Assembly: GCA_965219455.1 (NCBI GenBank) | Contig: OZ244744.1 | Span: 2,592,001 to 2,656,000 of the forward strand | From: Candidatus Latescibacterota bacterium | Lineage (GTDB): Bacteria > Latescibacterota > UBA2968 > GCA-2709665 | Reading direction: 5' to 3' | DNA length: 64,000 nucleotides | Shown here: piece after piece, positions 1 through 40,045 of the stretch | Layout of the letters: every line of letters begins with the position of its first letter | Position numbering within the stretch: position 1 is the first letter of the stretch | Notes under the pieces: generated by a model | Databases searched by the model: none | What the model saw: the letters and a program-made list of their open reading frames with translations, nothing else | Told to the model about the DNA's origin: nothing | Program-made: the position numbers and the translations under genes

Positions 1-205
1 CAATGCAGGCAGGCTCAGGGCAGCGCATTCGACCCGTCGACAAGCTCAGGGACCGCAGGCTCAGAAAAAGGTCCACGGGGACCGGCTCGGCTTCTGCGAC
101 TCCCCCTCAAGGGGGAGTGATTACACAGTCAATCGGGCTCGCGCGTTCATTTCCACCTATTCAGTTGCGCCTGCCTGCCGTGCCGGGCACGGCGCAGGCA
201 GGGCC
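1..205. repeat. Cluster of short intergenic palindromes (tcgacaagctca, actccccctcaagggggagt, cctgcctg...gcaggcagg)
   Basis: Palindromes visible at ~37-49, 99-118 and 168-202; related motifs recur at 18091-18165, 18636-18652 and 30037-30070. Confidence 0.6.
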
Positions 206-271
206 GAACAACCAAAAGCCGCGACAGGGCGCGTACCGAATTTTGGCGCCTGATTCGCCCTCTATTGGCGG

Positions 272-964
272 TTAATTCGGCGCCTGCTCCCTGATATTCT
301 CGGATACCACGTGGCCGTCGAACAGGTGAACGACGCGGTGAGCGAATCCGGCATCGTGGGCTTTGTGCGTTACCATCACAATGGTCGTCCCGTTCTTGTT
401 CAGTTCCGTCAGCAGTCCCATCACTTCATTGCCGTTGGCGGAGTCCAGGTTCCCCGTGGGCTCGTCCGCGAGGATGATATTCGGATTCGAGATGACCGCC
501 CGCGCCACGGCCACGCGCTGCTGTTGGCCGCCTGACAACTGCTGCGGGAAGTGCTTCTCGCGGTGTTTGATGCCCATATATTCCATCGACTCGTCCACGC
601 GTTTTCTGCGTTCTTTGGACGGCATCTTGAGGTACAGAAGCGGCAGCTCGATATTCTCGGCCACGGTCAGCTCGTCAATCAGATTGAAGCTCTGAAACAC
701 GAAACCGATATTCGCCTTTCGCGCATCGGCTCTCTGCCTCTCCGTGTGTTTCGATACCTCCACGTCGTTCAGGTAGTACTCTCCATCGGTCGGGTTATCC
801 AACAATCCAAGCACGTTCAGCAGCGTGGATTTGCCGCAACCCGACGGCCCCATCACCGCCACGAACTCGCCTTCACTGATCTCCAGGTTGACGTTTCGCA
901 GCGCGGTTGTTTCGACTTCTTCGGTCCTGTACACCTTCTGTAAATCCACAGTCTTGATCATCAC
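272..964 (-). CDS. ABC transporter ATP-binding protein, MacB/LolD family
   Basis: Walker A GPSGCGKS, signature LSGGQQQR, Walker B ILADEPTGNLD, H-loop VTH; 230 aa. Confidence 0.95.
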   Translation of the reverse strand: MMIKTVDLQKVYRTEEVETTALRNVNLEISEGEFVAVMGPSGCGKSTLLNVLGLLDNPTDGEYYLNDVEVSKHTERQRADARKANIGFVFQSFNLIDELTVAENIELPLLYLKMPSKERRKRVDESMEYMGIKHREKHFPQQLSGGQQQRVAVARAVISNPNIILADEPTGNLDSANGNEVMGLLTELNKNGTTIVMVTHKAHDAGFAHRVVHLFDGHVVSENIREQAPN

Positions 965-1946
965 TAGGCTCCTATAAAAAGGGTAAACGTTAGACGGGAA
1001 ACGGGAGATGATGTGAGTACCTTATGAAAGGGTAGACGGTAGACGGGAGAGGGTAGAGGAAATGTGTGCCTGATAGTCTTATAGGCCGTAACAACAACGG
1101 CTACTGAAGCGGCACGGGCTAAAATGAAAGGCCGTTTGTCAATCTCAAAATCATGGCGCGCAAGTTTCAACATGGCGTTCAGGCTCTATCCTTTTTGACG
1201 TGGCGCCGCATCAGATGGCAAGGTCTTTCCTCTACCGCCCCCCGGCCACCTCACCCGGGGTAAGACGTTAGACGGAAGAGGGGAGAGATTGCCTGCCCCG
1301 TGCGGTTTCATTTCTTGCCGGTGGCATAAAGGAAGAACCAATCGGGCAAGGATGTCTTCTCCCGGTTCCCGGCTCCCGTCTCCCCGCTTTCAGGTTTTTC
1401 CTCTACCGTCTCCCAGCTCACCTCTTACCGAAGTTAGACGGGAGATGATGTGAGTGCCTTATCGTCTCAAAAGTCGCAAAAGACATTGGCTGAGTTTTCG
1501 GCACGGATTACGACGAAACCCTATTTGTCAGTCCTGGCAGTAACGCAATTTGGCTGAAAATCAGCATCGTGTCTTGGCGCTATCCCTTCTCGCTCTGGCG
1601 CCGCATCAGGTGGCAAGGTTTTTCCTCTACCGCCCCCCGGCTACCTCACCCGGGGTAAGACGTTAGACGGAAGAGGGGAGAGATTGCCTGCCCCGTGCGG
1701 TTTCATTTCTTGCCGGTGGCATAAAGGAAGAACCAATCGGGCAAGGATGTCTTCTCCCGGCTCCCGTCTCCCGTCTCCCCGCTTTCAGGTTTTTCCTCTA
1801 CCGTCTCCCGGCTCACCTCTTACCGAAGTTAGACGGGAGAGGATATGAGTGCCCTCTGGTTTTTCTTGTCGTTACGACAACGGCAATGAAACTGGCACGG
1901 GTTATGTGGGTTCTCGTTATGTCAATCTCAAGATCATAGCGCATAG

Positions 1947-2023
1947 TCTTCGTTCCTGCAAACCTTCTGTAAATTCACCGTTTGGATCATCTGGGAGCCC
2001 CTATAACAGGGTAGACGTTAGAC
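1947..2023 (-). pseudogene. Degenerate copy of the 5' end and leader of the ABC ATPase gene, inside array unit 3
   Basis: ATG at 1990 reads MIQTVNLQKVCRNED versus MIKTVDLQKVYRTEE at 961; upstream cctata-N3/4-agggtaRacgttagacgg also matches 970-996. Confidence 0.85.
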
Positions 2024-2255
2024 GGAAGTGGGGAGAGATTGCCCGCCCGTTCGGTTTCATTTCTTGCCGGTGGGATAAAGGAAGAACCAATCGAGCAAGG
2101 ACGTCTTCTCCCGGCTCCCGTCTCCCGTCTCCCCGCTTTCAGGTTTTTCCTCTACCGTCTCCCGGCTCACCTCTTTCCGAAGTTAGACGGGAGAGGATAT
2201 GAGTGCCCGTTCGTTTTATTAGCCGTAACAAAAATGGCTAAGGACCCGGCACGGG

Positions 2256-2615
2256 TTACGAGGAAACTCTACTAATCAATCCTGACAGCAAACCAAACAA
2301 TCGATTCATCGTTTCTGATATTGATTGAACGTCATCGTCCGAACACAATTGGAGGTTTAGTGAAATTTCAAGTTGAGTATCCAACTCAACCAGCGAACTC
2401 CTGGCTATTTCGAGAAATCTTCTGCGTTCAGCATTCGAAGATCTTGCTGATCCCTCGGCGATGTTAGACGGTATTGAGACAGCAGACCGACGTAACTGGC
2501 TGGTAATGCCATAGAGTTCGGTGGAAGGAAATTCAGAGGTCAGAGTATAAATCTCGTTCACCAGATCGATGCTCTTTTTCCATACTACAAGCTTCTTGTG
2601 GCTGAGTTCCATCAT
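2256..2615 (-). CDS. Four-helix-bundle protein (23S rRNA intervening-sequence protein / Avd-like fold)
   Basis: Family motifs HKKLVVWKKS, FPSTELYGITSQLRRSAVSIPSNIAEG, FLEIARSSLVELDTQL; 119 aa. Confidence 0.93.
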   Translation of the reverse strand: MMELSHKKLVVWKKSIDLVNEIYTLTSEFPSTELYGITSQLRRSAVSIPSNIAEGSARSSNAERRRFLEIARSSLVELDTQLEISLNLQLCSDDDVQSISETMNRLFGLLSGLISRVSS

Positions 2616-3702
2616 CGCGTTTGTACCTATCCTATAAGGGTTTGGCGCCGAACCGGTTGCGGGGGTTTTTCCTCTTTCGCCTTACTGAAGTTAGACGTAA
2701 GACGGAAGAGGGGAGATGATATGAGTGCCGTATCGTGTTATAGGTCGTAAATACAAAGGCTACGTTGTCGGCACGGATTATAATGGAACATTTTTTGTCG
2801 ATCTCGAGCTGATGGGGTTCGAGATTCGAAATGGCGTTCAGGCTCTATCCTTTTTGACGTGGCGCCGCATCAGGTGGCAAGGTCTTTCCTCTCCCGCCCC
2901 CCGGCCACCTCACCCGGGGTAAGACGTTAGACGGAAGAGGTGAGAGATTGCCCGCCCGTTCGGTTTCATTTCTTGCCGGTGGGATAAAGGAAGAACCAAT
3001 CGGGCAAGGACGTCTTCTCCCGGCTCCCGTCTCCCGTCTCCCCGCTTTCAGGTTTTTCCTCTACCGTCTCCCGGCTCACCTCTTTCCGAAGTTAGACGGG
3101 AGAGGATATGAGTGCCCGTTCGTTTTATTAGCCGTAACAAAAATGGCTAAGGACCCGGCACGGGTTACGAGGAAACGCTTTCTGTCAAACTCAAGCTCAT
3201 GGTGAACGAGATTCAAGATGGCGTTCCGGCGCTATCCCTTCTCGCTCTGACGCCGCATCAGGTGGCAAGGTCTTTCCTCTCCCGCCCCCCGGCCACCTCA
3301 CCCGGGGTAAGACGTTAGACGGAAGAGGTGAGAGATTGCCCGCCCGTTCGGTTTCATTTCTTGCCGGTGGGATAAAGGAAGAACCAATCGGGCAAGGACG
3401 TCTTCTCCCGGCTCCCGTCTCCCGTCTCCCCGCTTTCAGGTTTTTCCTCTACCGTCTCCCGGCTCACCTCTTTCCGAAGTTAGACGGAAGACGTTAGACG
3501 GGAGAGGATATGAGTGCCCGTTCGTTTTATTAGCCGTAACAAAAATGGCTAAGGACCCGGCACGGGTTACGAGGAAACGCTTTCTGTCAAACTCAAGCTC
3601 ATGGTGAACGAGATTCAAGATGGCGTTCCGGCGCTATCCCTTCTCGCTCTGACGCCGCATCAGGTGGCAAGGTTTTTCCTCTACCGTCTCCCGGCTCCCG
3701 TC

Positions 3703-5151
3703 TCACCGCTGTAAAACGAGTTTATCTATTTCCTCATAGTTCTCATACGACGACGTTACGACACGCTCTCCGGGCGACAGGCCCTCGAGTACCTCGAAAT
3801 ACTCCGGATTCTGGCGTCCGATGCGAACATCGCGCCGCACGGCCAGGTCGCCCTCGACCACAAAGACCCAGTTCCCGCCTGTGGTCTGATAGAAACCGCC
3901 GCGCGGCAACAACATAGCGACTTCCGGCGCGTCCAGTTCCAGCCGAATCTGCTCCGTCTGGCCGCGGCGAATGCTCTGTGGCGCTTCGCCGATGAAATCC
4001 ATGTCCACCTCGAATTGCCCTTCCTTCACCTCGGGAAACACCCGGCGGATCTTCAGCTCGAATTTCTCGTCGTCGATTTCAATTGTCCCTCTGAGTCCCG
4101 CTGTGATTCTCGTTATGTAGAATTCATCGATAGCCGCACGCATCTTGTAGGCGTCCAGAACGTCGATCTGGCCGATGCTGGTCCCTCTCGCGATCAACTT
4201 GCCGATTTCGGCGTTGAGTTGCGACAGTTGTCCGTCGATCGGCGCGCGGACAGTCAGGTTTCTCAATGGACGGCGCACGTCATCCAGTTGAAGCTGCAAG
4301 CTATGTGCGCGCTTCTGCAGGGCAGCGAGTTCATTGATTCGATACAGTGAGTCGCGTCTGACCGTCTCGAGCATAAATACTCTGAGTTTTTGGGCATGCT
4401 TGTAACTGTCTTCTGCCGACATGAAATTTTCTCGAGACGTGAAATTTCGTTCGAATAGCGCTTTCTGCCTCAGAAATTCGCGCTCTGACCTTTGCAATTC
4501 CAGTTCGATGTCCATCAATGAGCGTTTTCGCTGGATATCCTGTATTTCCTGGTTCAACCGCGTGTTTTCCATTCTGTTGATCTGCTCGAACAATTGCGCT
4601 TCCTGGCTCAGCACGGTCTGTTCCAGGGATGGGTTCGACATGCGCAAGATCCGCGTGCCTTTTTCTACCATTGCCCCCTCTTCAAGGAATATCTCCTCCA
4701 CCTGCCCGCCTTCGAGCGCATCCAGGTAGTGCGACTGAATGGGCATCACGGTGCCGCGCTGGGGGATAAACTCCTGAAAGGGACCGACGGTGACTTCGGA
4801 TATCGTGATTCGCTCCACCTGCACGTTGAGCCTGGCGCTGTGGTCGCCGAATATCGCCATATAGACCACTAAGCCCACAAATCCCGCGACCGCTGCAACG
4901 CTCATGATCCGCTTCGGCGTCCAGAATTTCCTTTCGAGTTTGCGGTCCGTGCCCGGAATTGTCTTGTCGCGTGCCCCTTCAGACGACGAGGTATCGGCAC
5001 TCACGAAACCGGGCATCGGTCTATCTCCGCCAACGGAGTCCGACGTGCCCTCGGATGATTCCCGACTGGAAGTCTGGCGACCAGCCGGCGCGCCTGCCTG
5101 ATCCAGCTTCAACACGCGTCCCTTGTCCTTCTGTGATTTTTGCTCTTCCAT
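3703..5151 (-). CDS. Efflux periplasmic adaptor (MacA/HlyD-family membrane fusion protein)
   Basis: N-terminal TM segment, lipoyl-like halves (GGQVEEIFLEEG; VRAPIDGQL), long coiled coil, C-terminal EVLEGLSPGERVV. Confidence 0.93.
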   Translation of the reverse strand: MEEQKSQKDKGRVLKLDQAGAPAGRQTSSRESSEGTSDSVGGDRPMPGFVSADTSSSEGARDKTIPGTDRKLERKFWTPKRIMSVAAVAGFVGLVVYMAIFGDHSARLNVQVERITISEVTVGPFQEFIPQRGTVMPIQSHYLDALEGGQVEEIFLEEGAMVEKGTRILRMSNPSLEQTVLSQEAQLFEQINRMENTRLNQEIQDIQRKRSLMDIELELQRSEREFLRQKALFERNFTSRENFMSAEDSYKHAQKLRVFMLETVRRDSLYRINELAALQKRAHSLQLQLDDVRRPLRNLTVRAPIDGQLSQLNAEIGKLIARGTSIGQIDVLDAYKMRAAIDEFYITRITAGLRGTIEIDDEKFELKIRRVFPEVKEGQFEVDMDFIGEAPQSIRRGQTEQIRLELDAPEVAMLLPRGGFYQTTGGNWVFVVEGDLAVRRDVRIGRQNPEYFEVLEGLSPGERVVTSSYENYEEIDKLVLQR

Positions 5152-5217
5152 ACGACTTACCTTTACAACTCTTGAGACGTTGGCTTACAACCATTCCAGG
5201 TCGATTCTTTCCAGTTC

Positions 5218-5850
5218 CTATAGACTCACCGCCATCCCCAGACGTTCGACCTCCCGTCTCAACTGATGCCTTCCCCGGTATAACCAGACTTTCAACGTTC
5301 CGATGGGAACCTGGAGTTCCTCGACGATCTCATGATAGGACCGTTCACCCACGTAATGCAACCAGACCGCCTCCCGATGCCGTTCCGGCAGCGCCCCGAT
5401 GCTCCGCATCACAATTTGCCGGCGCTCCTTTCGCACCATCACCGCTTCCGGATCCTCGTGAGTCGCCGGGCGCCACCGCGCCTGGAGTGCGGGCGCCGCA
5501 TCCTCGACCTCACTTAGCCAGTTCTTCCGCTTTCTCAAGGACCGAGAATAGGATGTACACACATTCATGGCAATGCGGGTCAGCCACGTGGAGAACGCTG
5601 CCTGTCCCCGAAAGCCAGCCAGTCCCTGAAAGGCCTTGATAAAGACCAGCTGAACCAGATCCTCGGTCTCATCTGCGTTCCTTGCACATCGGTGCACGAG
5701 CGCTCGCACACGGTCACGATGCCGCCTGAAGAGAACCTGATAGGCCCAGTCATCGCCGGCAACGGCCCTGTCGATCAGCGTCGCGTCAGGCTCAGGCGCG
5801 CAGTGCAACGTCTGGAATTCGCTTTTCTTTTTCATCACAACGGGACCCAC
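5218..5850 (-). CDS. ECF-type RNA polymerase sigma-70 factor (start may be 5835)
   Basis: Region 2 EDLVQLVFIKAF...FSTWLTRIAMN and region 4 SYHEIVEELQVPIGTLKVWLYRGR. Confidence 0.92.
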   Translation of the reverse strand: MGPVVMKKKSEFQTLHCAPEPDATLIDRAVAGDDWAYQVLFRRHRDRVRALVHRCARNADETEDLVQLVFIKAFQGLAGFRGQAAFSTWLTRIAMNVCTSYSRSLRKRKNWLSEVEDAAPALQARWRPATHEDPEAVMVRKERRQIVMRSIGALPERHREAVWLHYVGERSYHEIVEELQVPIGTLKVWLYRGRHQLRREVERLGMAVSL

Positions 5851-5901
5851 TCTTTTTTCAAATCGAAAGTCTCCAGGCTACCAGATTCTCTTCAGATGAC
5901 T

Positions 5902-6019
5902 AGCGACAACCGTGCCAACAGACATTTCTATATATTTTTCAATTGTTTAGGTCGATACTATCATGAAAGCTCGACAAACAAGTGTCCGTTTTCGATACAC
6001 TGATGTCCGAAAATGAACA
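5902..6019 (-). promoter_or_regulatory. Sigma-54 promoter with IHF-like site and tandem enhancer, upstream of the ECF sigma gene
   Basis: Minus strand TGGCACG-GTTG-TCGCT (5917-5902); TTTCAATTGTTTA at ~5937; TGTCCGTTTTCGATACA 5983-5999 and TGTCCGAAAATGAACA 6004-6019. Confidence 0.8.
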
Positions 6020-6142: not shown

Positions 6143-8482
6143 TCACTCGGTCCGTAGCGCGTCCACCGGATTCGCCCACGCCGCCCGGATGGCCTGGGCG
6201 CTAACGGTCAGCAGCACGGCCAGCAGCACCAATATCCCACCCAATACAAACGTGCCGATGCCCGGTTCTATCCGATACGCGAAGTCCTGCAACCATCGAT
6301 CCGTTGCATAATACGCCGCGGGGAACGCAATGAGACTTGCAATGACCACGAGCTTTACGAAATCCCTGGACAACAGGGAGACGATCCCGGATGCATGGGC
6401 GCCCAGGACTCTTCGAACGCCGATCTCCCGGGTCCGGCGCGCAACCGAAAGGGCCGTGAGCCCGAACGCTCCGAGACAGGCGATAAAGACCGCGAGCAGC
6501 GCGGAAAACCATAAGACCCGGTTCCAGCGATCCTCGTCCCTATATTGGCCCTTAACTTCGTCGTCAAGAAAAAAATGCTGAAACTCAAGGCCAGGCGCGA
6601 TCTCGCGCCATTTCTCTTCGAGGAAGGCCACCGTACCGGGGATGTTCTCCGGGCGGATCCTGACAAACAACATGCCCCATCCCATCCTATCGAGCCTCAA
6701 CACAGCCGGTCCGATCCTGTGGTGCAGAGAGCGAACGTGGAAGTCCTGGACAACCCCGATCACCGTAACATCCCGTTCTTCCACTCGCAGCATCCTGCCC
6801 ACAACCTGATTCTCCCACCCCAAGCGCCGGACCAGGGCCTCGTTCACGATTATCGAGGACCGAAAATCCGAACTCCGTGGAAAGAAATCGGCTCCCTCCA
6901 GGAGGGATAAGCCCATTGTCTTCAGAAAGTCATATCCGACATCAACCAGCTCGACATCCAATTTTTCTCCTTGATACTCTACGTTGCCGAGGTACCTCGT
7001 CCGGTTGCTCAGCGCATGCGTGGTGGTCGTTATCCCCAGGACCGTATGGTGACGTATCAACTCATTCCGGAACACGTCAACAGGGCCTGAATCTCTCTGC
7101 CACAGATCCCAAATCGGGATACGCAGGACATGTTCGCTTTTGAAGCCCAGCGGTTTTTTCTTCAGATACTCAAGTTGCCGGACCATCAGAAGCGCACTGA
7201 CAACCATAAAGACTGACATCGCTAACTGAAAAACCACCAGCGCCCTTGCGAACAGGCTGGTGGCTCCGAACCTGTGCCTTCCTCCTAACACCACAACCGG
7301 TTGAAACCCGGACAGAACAAAGGCCGGATAACCGCCAGCCGCCAGCCCGACGGCCGCCGAGAGTCCGACCAGAAAGGCCAGCCCAGCGCCATCCGTCTGA
7401 TCGCGAAGGGCGAGGTCCATCCCGACCAGGTTGTTGAATGCCGGCAGGAGGAGTTCCGCCAGAACTACCCCGGTAATCAGGGCCATCACGCTCAACAACA
7501 TCGACTCTCCCAGGAACTGCTGAGTCAGCTGCGTCCGAGATGCGCCCGACACTCTACGCATCGCGACCTCCCGGTCGCGAGAGAATGACCGGCCCACGGC
7601 AAGGGTCATGAAGTTCACGCATGCAATTACCAGCACCATAAGAGATATTCCAATAAGAACATATGAATAGACCGGATTGCTCACAGGCTTCGGTCCCCGA
7701 CCGCCGCGGTTGAGATGTACCTCCAGAAGGGGCTGAAGGCCAAACTTATTTTCCGCATTTTCACCGAACCATGTCTTTACAAGTCCCGGAAACTGCTCCT
7801 CCAGATCGGCCAGCCAGACGTGTTCCGAAAGAAGCACATAGGTCGCGATATTATAATGTCTCCAATTTCGGGGTTCACCCCTGGCGGCAAACGGAGCCAG
7901 AAAGTCGAACCGGATGCTGGAGTTTTTTGGAATGGTCTTAGCAATCCCGGTTATAACGAAATCCCGGTCCGCAGCCGGCGGCCCCCATAGTCTCACTGAA
8001 AGGACTTTGCCGAGGGGATCTTCATGTCCGAAGTATTTTCGGGCCGCCGCTTCGGTGATCACAAGAGAGGACGGATCTTCCAGCACGGTTGCAGGGTCTC
8101 CCTTCAGCAGGGGAAAAGTGAACACTTCGAGGATCGCCGGATCGGCAAAGTAGATACTTCGCCCTAGAGACCGGTCCCCCTCCTTCACAGATGAAGCGCC
8201 CCCGCCGATCCTTACGGCCGGGATGTCTGGAAACGCTGCCACCAGCGCGGGCCCCAGCGGATCCGGCGTCATGCCCGACTGTCCAAATCCCGTCTCAGTA
8301 TATACGCGGTAAATCCTATCCGCATAGTCGTGGAACGTGTCGTACGTCCACTCGTGCCGGACGAACAGAAATGTCAGGATGCAAAACGCAATTCCGATCG
8401 ATAGGCCCGCCACGTTGATCAAGGAGTAGACCTTGTGCCGCATGAGATTTCGATACGCCACGATCAGATAATTTCGGAGCAT
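6143..8482 (-). CDS. ABC transporter permease, duplicated MacB/FtsX type (paralogue P1)
   Basis: MLRNYLIVAYRNL start, two periplasmic domains plus two FtsX domains (REVAMRRVSGA; RRTREIGVRRVLGA), NPVDALRTE end; 779 aa. Confidence 0.95.
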   Translation of the reverse strand: MLRNYLIVAYRNLMRHKVYSLINVAGLSIGIAFCILTFLFVRHEWTYDTFHDYADRIYRVYTETGFGQSGMTPDPLGPALVAAFPDIPAVRIGGGASSVKEGDRSLGRSIYFADPAILEVFTFPLLKGDPATVLEDPSSLVITEAAARKYFGHEDPLGKVLSVRLWGPPAADRDFVITGIAKTIPKNSSIRFDFLAPFAARGEPRNWRHYNIATYVLLSEHVWLADLEEQFPGLVKTWFGENAENKFGLQPLLEVHLNRGGRGPKPVSNPVYSYVLIGISLMVLVIACVNFMTLAVGRSFSRDREVAMRRVSGASRTQLTQQFLGESMLLSVMALITGVVLAELLLPAFNNLVGMDLALRDQTDGAGLAFLVGLSAAVGLAAGGYPAFVLSGFQPVVVLGGRHRFGATSLFARALVVFQLAMSVFMVVSALLMVRQLEYLKKKPLGFKSEHVLRIPIWDLWQRDSGPVDVFRNELIRHHTVLGITTTTHALSNRTRYLGNVEYQGEKLDVELVDVGYDFLKTMGLSLLEGADFFPRSSDFRSSIIVNEALVRRLGWENQVVGRMLRVEERDVTVIGVVQDFHVRSLHHRIGPAVLRLDRMGWGMLFVRIRPENIPGTVAFLEEKWREIAPGLEFQHFFLDDEVKGQYRDEDRWNRVLWFSALLAVFIACLGAFGLTALSVARRTREIGVRRVLGAHASGIVSLLSRDFVKLVVIASLIAFPAAYYATDRWLQDFAYRIEPGIGTFVLGGILVLLAVLLTVSAQAIRAAWANPVDALRTE

Positions 8483-11645: not shown

Positions 11646-11925
11646 CCACTGCACAAAGCGTTTTTTCTTCTATTTCTCTCTGGTCTTTCAGGTCCCGCCG
11701 TTTTCGTCTACCGTCTCGCGCCTCACCGCCTCTTGGCCTTTCCTCTCCCGTCTACCTTCTCCCGTCTCCCCGGCTCTTGCCTTTCCCTTTGTGTCTCTGT
11801 GTCTCCGTGTGAGTCGGGGTTTTCTTCCGTCTCACCGTGAGGTCATTAATTCCTGGAACAAATCTACACGGAAAACGATCAAATCTATTAAACCAATATT
11901 CTTACTCCAAAAGGGGGTGGTGACC

Positions 11926-12050: not shown

Positions 12051-12465
12051 CCCAATCAAGCCTCTGCCTTCTCCCCGCCCTTCAGCCCTATCCTCTTCCC
12101 TCTACCGTCTCACGTCTCCCCTCCTTTTGCCTTTCCCTTTGTGTCTCTGTGTCTCCGTGTGAGTCGAAGTTTTCTCCCGCCTCCCCGCCTTAGCTGGCCG
12201 CCAAATATTCGCAGCGCGCATGTATCTATAACCCGCGAACTAACAGTTCGCGCTACGGTCGGACACTAAATTGCGGGGACGCTGGACGGTTTGGCGGCTG
12301 GGCGTGGCCTTCTTCCTTCTTCCCGCTCTTCGCCTTTCCCTTTGTGTCTCTGTGTCTCCGTGTGAGTCGAAGTTTTCTCCCGCCTCCCCGCCTTCAGCCC
12401 TTTCCTCTTCCTTCTACCTTCTTCCTTCTTCCTTTTTTTCGCCTTTCCCTCTACCCTCTCCCGTC

Positions 12466-38015: not shown

Positions 38016-38227
38016 GGTTAAGTTCTCCGCTATAGGTGTGGCGCTGTCATCAGTCAGTGATCGGCTCACTGATCGGTTAATTCATGCCGGGAGAGGTGAG
38101 ACGGGAGACGTAAGAGGGCCGCACCACCCGACCATGGATTCGCGGTGTCGTATTTGCAAGGATTGTGGTGTTTGGTTTTTCGGTTCAAGCTGAACGCTGA
38201 TGGCTGACAGCTGACATTCTTGTTCTA

Positions 38228-39810: not shown

Positions 39811-40045
39811 TAGCGGTCAGCTATCAGCCATTAGCTATCAGCTTGAAGCAAAACCGAAAGACAAACAGCAATCAGCGGTCAGCGGTCAGCGGTCAGCCAA
39901 AAGAAATAGGCGAGAACCAGATTCAAAATCCACTTCTCCCCAAATTCCCTGCCTTCGGCGGGACAGAGAATCCTCACACGAAGACACAAAGGGAAAACCG
40001 GAAATCGCGACAAGGCGGGCAACCACAAGGGTTGCCCCTACAAAT
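39811..40045. repeat. AGCNNTC heptamer runs and one GTAG-type REP
   Basis: agcggtc/agctatc tandems at 39812-39843 and 39868-39898; gggcaaccacaagggttgcccctac at 40017-40041. Confidence 0.8.

Follow-up and report, generated by a model that had tools for sequence, protein, structure and literature searches.

A spacer filled with copies of one cassette

The DNA analysed here (the window) is a stretch of 64,000 nucleotides, bases 2,592,001-2,656,000 of the 5.84-Mb, single-contig genome of a Candidatus Latescibacterota bacterium (assembly GCA_965219455.1, contig OZ244744.1; G000 below), and our subject is a repeat array that separates two genes of an operon, coding for a HlyD-family membrane-fusion (adaptor) protein and an ABC-transporter ATPase. 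The genes around the array all lie on the minus strand. The HlyD gene (3703-5151; Pfam HlyD_3, E 7.9e-13) ends in a TGA stop that directly abuts the first 7-nt repeat of the array, and the ATPase gene (272-964; Pfam ABC_tran, E 2.3e-36) is intact, retains its own ribosome-binding site (RBS), AGGAG, and encodes a protein with 96-100% identity throughout the genus. An ECF sigma factor gene (5218-5850) completes this set, and a MacB/FtsX permease gene (6143-8482, minus strand) lies upstream of sigma factor, HlyD gene, array and ATPase gene.

The 2.7-kb HlyD-ATPase spacer consists of seven tandem copies of one cassette, one intact and six derivatives without the gene body. Five of these derivatives are internal deletions retaining just the first 6-10 and the last 5-12 codons of the gene, and the sixth is fused to a copy of the ATPase 5' end. 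The original prediction, made from the sequence alone, had placed here an array of ~390-bp units with alternating constant and variable parts; repeat finders confirmed it, TRF giving a period of 388 over 2695-3695 with 88% matches, and all seven proposed starts of variable parts (1066, 1454, 1849, 2203, 2725, 3112 and 3514) coincide with the G of a GTGCC. Among the repeats are a family of 276 nt (5 copies) and one of 92 nt (6 copies), and TRF gave period-7 tracts of ~4 copies at each arm of the cassette. The constant part had been expected in every unit at >90% identity: the copies are 84-97% identical to one another (mean 90.8%), and there are five full blocks rather than seven, as the stretches 2663-2724 and 965-1065 lack the 130-nt hairpin described below. 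The variable parts are related yet diverged, as had been proposed, the five gene-less cassette blocks being 66-79% identical save for units 6 and 7, which had been called identical and are near-identical (99%); the five distinct versions agree in 30 of their first 75 columns, rather than in about 33. Better unit boundaries are given by a cassette remnant of ~165 nt plus a hairpin block of ~225-240 nt.

We call the gene-less remnants ghosts, of type A or B according to their deletion junction. On the minus strand, from the HlyD gene onwards, unit 7 (3514-3676), a type B ghost made of leader, remnant of the open reading frame (ORF) ends and the motif GTGCC-N42-GGCAC, is followed by constant block 7 (3275-3513), in which two junction hairpins enclose a dispersed hairpin repeat of 130 nt (core 3334-3418) and which holds one additional heptamer pair. 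Then come unit 6 (3112-3274; type B), constant block 6 (2887-3111; hairpin repeat core 2946-3030) and unit 5 (2725-2886; type B), and a stretch of joined arms (2663-2724) that lacks the dispersed hairpin repeat leads to the intact cassette, unit 4 (2203-2662), with its leader at 2616-2662, gene at 2256-2615 and 3' motif at 2203-2255. Beyond constant block 4 (1992-2202; core 2037-2121), unit 3 (1849-1991) is a chimaera in which the ATPase RBS and first ~15 codons (1943-1991, 77-84% identical to 918-982) replace the leader, a type B ghost contributes its 3' part (1906-1942) and the 3' motif follows at 1849-1905. Constant block 3 (1623-1848) carries a second subtype of the hairpin repeat (core 1682-1767), unit 2 (1454-1622) is a type A ghost with close counterparts in two units of the sister genome G013, and constant block 2 (1228-1453; core 1287-1371) precedes unit 1 (1066-1227), a type B ghost common to the sister genome G003 (87% over 155 nt). 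The tail (965-1065) holds two short right-arm modules and then the AGGAG of the ATPase gene. Units 5, 6 and 7 and constant blocks 2, 3 and 4 were assigned from the module map and the sequence, unit 3 from these and its repeat family, block 6 from the module map and folding, and unit 2, the junction of units 5 and 4 and the tail from the sequence.

Contigs of public runs cover much of this region piecewise. Those of run X1 match it with 0 differences over 857-1201, 1385-1628, 1825-2062, 2238-2860 and 3657-4000, and those of X2 over 857-1201, 1416-1632, 2238-2860 and 3657-4000, without 1825-2062. X1 and X2 belong to one study and possibly to the source sample, and X5 and X6, from two other studies, have contigs that hold most of the unique segments with a few differences. 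X5 and X6 also yielded contigs with alternative joints, for example 1519 to 1920 and 2012 to 3489, which relatives or repeats can cause in metagenomes.

Design of the cassette

The full cassette is ordered as left arm, leader, four-helix-bundle gene, 3' motif GTGCC-N42-GGCAC and right arm. Its arms are mutually inverted tandem 7-nt repeats, GAGACGG-like on the left and CCGTCTC-like on the right, and the leader, of ~50-100 nt, contains AAGACCTTGCCACCTGATGCGGCGCC and, further on, an RBS-like GGATAG. As read in the operon direction, the motif in the units is CCGTGCC-N42-GGCACTCA. GTGCC and GGCAC are unchanged in all 17 copies and always at the same spacing, and this 5-bp pair shows no covariation; it is the best lead to a candidate recognition site.

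The gene of unit 4, which had been predicted to be an intact four-helix-bundle gene, encodes 119 aa on the minus strand and is indeed a member of PF05635 (score 127.3 bits, gathering cut-off 33.8; E 3.4e-37; residues 7-111), with a further match to PDB 2GSC (E 4.5e-29). It is the sole PF05635 match of the genome and the only recognised gene of the cassette, as the six other ORFs of the array, all of which were scanned, have no Pfam match. Purifying selection is apparent in seven of seven comparisons (dN/dS 0.10-0.33), and we infer that the protein is functional, a role as mobility factor being a proposal. Copies at other loci are homologous over the gene, up to 104 nt ahead of its start codon and 71-77 nt past its stop, and the cassette so delimited measures about 540 nt.

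Similar packaging may be seen around more distant members of the family. Among 80 relatives sampled from many phyla, 78 have enough flanking sequence, and 29 of these 78 have period-7 runs on both sides, complementary to each other in 20 of the 29. A gene-end remnant lies close to the PF05635 gene in three of the 80.

Gene-less units are internal deletions

When the units are aligned, the 360-nt gene of unit 4 falls exactly where the other units have ~55 nt, and the 19 ghosts gathered from 11 genomes show the same two junction types, A and B. The mini-ORF of unit 2, MLIFSQIALLPGLTNRVSS*, joins the start of the gene in frame to its last 11 codons (the intact protein ends ...LLSGLISRVSS*), and the type A ghost of sister genome G005 contains the mini-ORF MMELSQIALLSGLTESISI*, with start and C-terminal codons also in frame and the same junction as unit 2. 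The ghost of G011 agrees with the intact gene of G013 in the leader and in 29 of the first 31 ORF bases, and then resumes at the final 15 ORF bases, which lead into the 3' motif. Several ghosts are out of frame and are therefore not maintained as peptides. They resemble miniature inverted-repeat transposable elements (MITEs) in that they are internal deletions of a longer element with both ends retained.

We also considered that the variable parts might be decayed copies of the ATPase N-terminus, and rejected this, as only unit 3 has such a copy and the others are remnants of the four-helix-bundle gene. Global alignment of ghosts and full cassette under cheap gap extension broke up into scattered blocks, and we set it aside.

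Hairpin blocks and a dispersed repeat

Three hairpins, built from the same 7-nt arms, lie between the cassette remnants. In the folds computed for constant block 6, a right arm and the left arm that follows it form the first hairpin (-31 kcal/mol, z -2.99); next comes one of ~130 nt (-64.2 kcal/mol, z -4.07, with none of 200 shuffles as good), and the last is again of arm-arm type (-31.9 kcal/mol). When 22 copies of the long hairpin, taken from 13 genomes, are compared, compensatory double changes are seen in 6 of its 25 predicted pairs.

The 130-nt hairpin repeat is not confined to the array: four solo copies sit in unrelated spacers of G000, and it occurs in all 14 sister genomes, with 33 to 188 first-look candidates in each. 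Its two subtypes occupy the HlyD-proximal and the ATPase-proximal half of the array respectively, and the second is also present in G003. The repeat and the cassette have their arms and the arm-adjacent sequence in common, and two copies elsewhere have cassette-type ends; descent of the repeat from the cassette is plausible but only half supported.

Heptamer runs and dispersed repeats of other kinds were also observed. G000 contains 127 period-7 tandem runs of at least 3 copies, among which the GCTGnnn family is the commonest, and in the window such runs also occur at 11744-11770, 12402-12434, 38088-38216 and 39817-39897. GCTGnnn is the arm type of a second allele of the four-helix-bundle gene (see below), which G000 does not have, and the GCTGnnn runs of G000 resemble orphan hairpins that belong to a foreign or lost type of cassette. 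A second dispersed family of ~200-300 nt (L062:1064-1311 in G006), unrelated to the hairpin repeat of the array, occupies more than 30 places in G000 (e.g. C1:2396213-2396477), one of them in the rplI/PPase region, which in sister genomes is the site of a four-helix-bundle cassette.

The same spacer in sister species

Some element is present in the HlyD-ATPase spacer of all 15 genomes of the genus that were compared (G000 and 14 sisters). In G027, a genome of an outgroup genus, the spacer measures 35 nt. What fills the spacer varies from a lone hairpin repeat (G012; G001 has a lone hairpin with a different arm type) or a single ghost, of type A in G002 and G005 and of type B in G011, to an intact gene accompanied by one ghost (G003, and in the order ghost, intact gene, G014), an intact gene joined by two ghosts of type A and by three perfect modules of 49 nt (G013), and the seven units of G000. 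Arrays of 2-3 cassette units are thus found in G003, G013 and G014, and the recurrence of arrays beside four-helix-bundle homologues, which the original prediction had proposed as its own check, is borne out at this same spacer.

Nine genomes have an intact PF05635 gene in the spacer, four of them with the window's allele and five (G004 and G006-G009) with a second allele of 43-46% protein identity, which has GCTGnnn arms and lies before an ATPase that is 96-100% identical. In G006-G009 this second-allele gene is flanked by two to three gene-free hairpins, and in G004 the contig ends at the gene. No remnant of the second-allele gene was found by BLAST (E 1e-3) in the gene-free hairpins of G001 and G006-G009, and a resemblance noted by eye was given up accordingly. 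The first 45 nt past the HlyD stop of G008 (L055) hold an arm stub of the GAGACGG type, a second copy of the HlyD end and then GCTGnnn arms. This second copy has the last codons as they are in the genomes with the other allele, and arm stub and doubled HlyD end together indicate that one allele was replaced by the other through recombination.

The modules of G013, three perfect tandem copies of 49 nt at spacer positions 737-885 (L065), each combine the final bases of the 3' motif (GCAC TCATATCC) with a right arm and ACCCTTTCATCAG. Either slippage or repeated crossovers could have produced them, and the two modules in the tail of the array of G000 (965-1065) are similar to them. In G010 (L054:1650-4702) the spacer measures 3.9 kb and has no array; it contains additional ORFs of 827 and 161 aa, the first of which resembles by eye the FtsX/MacB permease of the window, and of the 3' motif just a stretch matching at 75% is left ahead of the ATPase gene. 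The spacer of G022 (L057), a genome of another genus, is ~1.43 kb long and holds about ten CTCGCCT heptamers and then an ORF of ~330 codons, which by eye only is like an IS110-type transposase.

Other loci and lateral movement

The cassette is not restricted to this operon. The window's allele, at 84-91% nucleotide identity, lies beside rplI, downstream of an H+-pyrophosphatase (H+-PPase) gene, in G006, G010 and G014, and between the genes for L25 and peptidyl-tRNA hydrolase (Pth) in G012. Complete ghosts of both types occur in 7 further spacers of 8 sister genomes, for example between rpiA and sucD in G008 and G005, and they usually adjoin a hairpin repeat, arranged as in the array.

Synonymous distances differ sharply between the cassette and its surroundings. 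Between G000 and G013, dS is 0.10 for the four-helix-bundle gene and 0.61 for the ATPase gene, and for the pair G000 and G003 these distances are 0.16 and 0.31, respectively. The same holds for non-coding DNA, as the ghost of unit 2 is 98.2% identical to its G013 counterparts over 169 nt, compared with 89% for the ATPase gene and 86% for the HlyD gene. Cassettes are thus far more alike between species than the genes that flank them, and we conclude that they moved laterally and were exchanged after the lineages split.

Profile searches of the genome gave 16 matches to PF00078 (reverse transcriptase, RT), 2 to PF01797 (partial Y1-transposases), 0 to PF01548 (IS110-type) and 5 to PF00589 (tyrosine recombinase). 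None of them lies within 2592001-2656000, the RT and Y1-transposase matches all being far away, which agrees with the earlier statement that the window has no RT, integrase or transposase gene as far as these four families go; cas genes and DDE transposases were not searched for. About a dozen of the RT ORFs of G000 are alike in size and score (458-466 aa, 125-129 bits; e.g. C1 571544-572209, 1947481-1948146 and 4793776-4794441) and probably form one active retroelement family, group II intron-like by size alone.

Origin of the array

We think it likely that a small selfish cassette, kin of the ORF-bearing intervening sequences (IVS) of 23S rRNA, has piled up locally in this region and decays to gene-less units. 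The array would have grown by unequal and illegitimate recombination between its repeated arms and hairpins, complemented by exchange with related lineages. Scars of such events can be recognised in the array itself, where units 4, 6 and 7 have exactly the same 3' motif next to unlike remnants, unit 7 adjoins its near-identical counterpart unit 6, and unit 3 carries the ATPase 5' fragment, and at the sister loci, in the doubled HlyD end of G008 and the perfect modules of G013; together they point to recombination among arms and hairpins. The alternation of constant and variable parts follows if the hairpin blocks are the shared substrate and the remnants have separate histories: as the material on which recombination acts, the hairpin blocks are either young or homogenised and hence alike, and remnants differ because their ancestries differ, some having been exchanged with other species. 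Of the two proposals made originally, a self-amplifying cassette therefore comes close to the evidence, since the units are copies or deletion derivatives of one cassette, arrays recur and other loci are occupied.

The operon would be read through the array, and the hairpins may make the insert tolerable at the RNA level, probably via cuts by RNase III, by analogy with the rRNA elements. A scan of the array region found no terminator-like site on the operon strand and no promoter-like sites above chance; as the ATPase gene has also kept its AGGAG, read-through is plausible. A hairpin followed by a T-run resembles a terminator on the plus strand, opposite to the operon, at 1600-1614 and 3654-3668, inside the leaders of units 2 and 7. 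As 3 terminator-like sites were found in 200-5400 where 5.8 are expected, these leader sites may be due to chance.

Several observations weigh against this explanation. No enzyme able to move the cassette was found, and neither a target duplication nor a clean empty site could be defined in three comparisons of occupied with other spacers, in which the whole spacer differs. No contig spans the whole array, so that unit order and copy number rest on a single assembly. Whole units fold no better than shuffled sequences (z -1.77 and -0.97), and the predicted folds pair neighbouring arms and form no stem around the cassette such as that of the rRNA IVS. The link between cassette and dispersed repeat is also incomplete: a profile of the 3' motif alone matches none of the dispersed repeat copies of G000, and one of 3' motif plus arm matches just the last ~45 positions of the 130-nt repeat. 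Finally, decay does not explain why GTGCC and GGCAC are invariant at a fixed spacing, which hints at recognition by a protein.

Such a protein is central to a different explanation, which we consider unlikely, namely that the cassette is an autonomous mobile element whose Avd-like four-helix-bundle protein is its own mobility factor, acting on GTGCC-N42-GGCAC and/or the arms and moving ghosts in trans. A possible route would be the excised RNA together with a host RT; the 130-nt and other heptamer hairpins may then be further derivatives, and tandem arrays would be preferred landing sites. Nothing connects the RT or Y1-transposase matches of the genome with the array.

The other proposal of the original prediction was a functional protein-plus-RNA array, in which the transcript would be cut into structured RNAs, one per unit, bound by the Avd-like protein. 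The only PF05635 gene of the genome does stand in the centre of the array and is under purifying selection, every unit retains GTGCC-N42-GGCAC as its interior drifts, and the family is homologous to Avd, which works with nucleic acid in diversity-generating retroelements (DGRs; PMC10053308). However, the variable parts turn out to be remnants of the gene's own ends, with frameshifts that break the reading frames, and their only conserved structure, the 5-bp GTGCC/GGCAC pair of the 3' motif, shows no covariation. Nor does the distribution fit well, as spacer content ranges between species from a single gene-less element to seven units, and single ghosts persist in G005 and G011, two genomes (each 95% complete) without a PF05635 match. 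Rfam gave no match, to rRNA or any other family, over positions 1-6000 even at a permissive threshold. We found no direct support for processing into a family of protein-bound RNAs, and regard such a system as quite improbable.

Integron cassette arrays and Xer-dependent dif modules are built from conserved structured sites that alternate with variable cassettes, and the array has a similar alternation of structured blocks and variable cassettes, in which promoter- and terminator-like sites are not beyond chance. A site-specific system of this kind (integron attC- or Xer-dif-like), with a recombinase encoded elsewhere and an array formed by successive insertions, would account for the two invariant inverted cores with their fixed spacing and variable centre (17/17), for the tandem 49-nt modules of G013, which begin at GCAC, and for the presence of one cassette at three loci. 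However, the window has no tyrosine recombinase, all 5 PF00589 matches of the genome lying elsewhere; the cassettes are all mutually homologous versions of one gene rather than unrelated genes; the copied ATPase piece and the doubled HlyD end are scars of general or illegitimate recombination; and no defined junction was found at other loci. We therefore reject the array as an integron and consider any site-specific cassette system very unlikely.

Plain local tandem duplication followed by neutral decay, without mobility and with gene conversion alone keeping the constant parts alike, would explain why units 6 and 7 are near-identical neighbours, and unit 3 does look like a duplication joint that included the start of the ATPase gene. 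It is contradicted by the multi-locus and dS results, that is, by one gene allele at three loci, both ghost types in 7 other spacers, and a cassette dS of 0.10 next to 0.61 for the adjacent gene with unit 2 98% identical to G013; the 45%-identical allele with other arms in the same spacer of five sister genomes is also hard to reconcile with it, which leaves this a highly improbable account. An assembly artefact is scarcely credible, since, repetitive as the array is and spanned by no public contig, each distinct variable segment and its junctions with constant blocks are found without differences in X1 and/or X2 and largely in X5 and X6, and comparable arrays exist in several sister genomes.

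Comparison with known systems

The closest parallel is offered by the rRNA IVS. In Coxiella burnetii (S23p IVS) and Leptospira, these consist of a PF05635 ORF between inverted repeats, have a sporadic distribution with signs of horizontal transfer and a 28-bp terminal stem cut by RNase III, and are regarded as selfish elements that are tolerated because RNase III removes them (PMC4990558). The cassette of the window is likewise a PF05635 ORF flanked by inverted repeats. However, it lies between two protein genes of an operon rather than in helix 45, 25 or 9 of 23S rRNA, its arms are tandem 7-nt repeats, and it forms a tandem array with gene-less derivatives. In its predicted folds, neighbouring arms pair with each other instead of enclosing the gene, and excision by RNase III would be a matter of analogy.

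MITEs and REPIN-type repeats are non-autonomous hairpin repeats, and the parent element of a MITE encodes a transposase. The ghosts resemble them in keeping their ends, sitting in spacers at unrelated loci, being able to form hairpins and outnumbering the full element. The full element differs in that it has no transposase and encodes only a 119-aa four-helix-bundle protein, and no target-site duplication was found in the three comparisons. Enterobacterial repetitive extragenic palindromic (REP) sequences in operon spacers form stable intercistronic hairpins; those of the array are likewise intercistronic in a co-oriented gene pair and could uncouple the mRNA stability of the two genes, but they are an unrelated sequence family and are tied to a gene cassette.

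Two further readings were rejected. The protein belongs to a four-helix-bundle family homologous to Avd (PMC10053308), and a DGR had accordingly been considered, but the window has neither an RT, as none of the 16 PF00078 matches falls in it, nor a template/variable repeat pair. Moreover, mismatches in 8 of 8 unit pairs affect all four bases without an adenine bias, which argues that there was no DGR-type mutagenesis. A CRISPR array was discarded on account of a period of 388 nt versus short repeats of about 24-48 nt, 'spacers' that are mutually homologous and the absence of Rfam matches; cas genes, as said, were not part of the search.

The original prediction had called the element undescribed. 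Its gene family and inverted-repeat packaging are known from the 23S rRNA IVS (PMC4990558), and it is the array and the deletion series that are new. In full-text literature (supplements not covered), we found no paper on PF05635 genes as hairpin-flanked cassettes of operon spacers or as arrays. New are the tandem array itself, ghosts that still show the start and stop of the gene, the presence of two ghost lineages at several loci, the replacement of one allele by another at one spacer, and the contrast in dS between cassette and flanking genes.

Implications

PF05635 genes are common in bacteria, and this locus ties them both to the rRNA IVS and to the 7-nt tandem repeats that many genomes contain. 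It is a compact natural record, in which an intact cassette, two deletion lineages and a hairpin repeat with the cassette's arms stand together, and from the sister species there is dated evidence for the passage of both forms, full and gene-less, from lineage to lineage and from locus to locus without a recognisable transposase. What moves the cassettes, and whether operon transcripts get cut at the arms as rRNA is, become testable questions. For annotation, a long 'intergenic' stretch inside an operon of this group may be a graveyard of cassettes and not a regulatory region.

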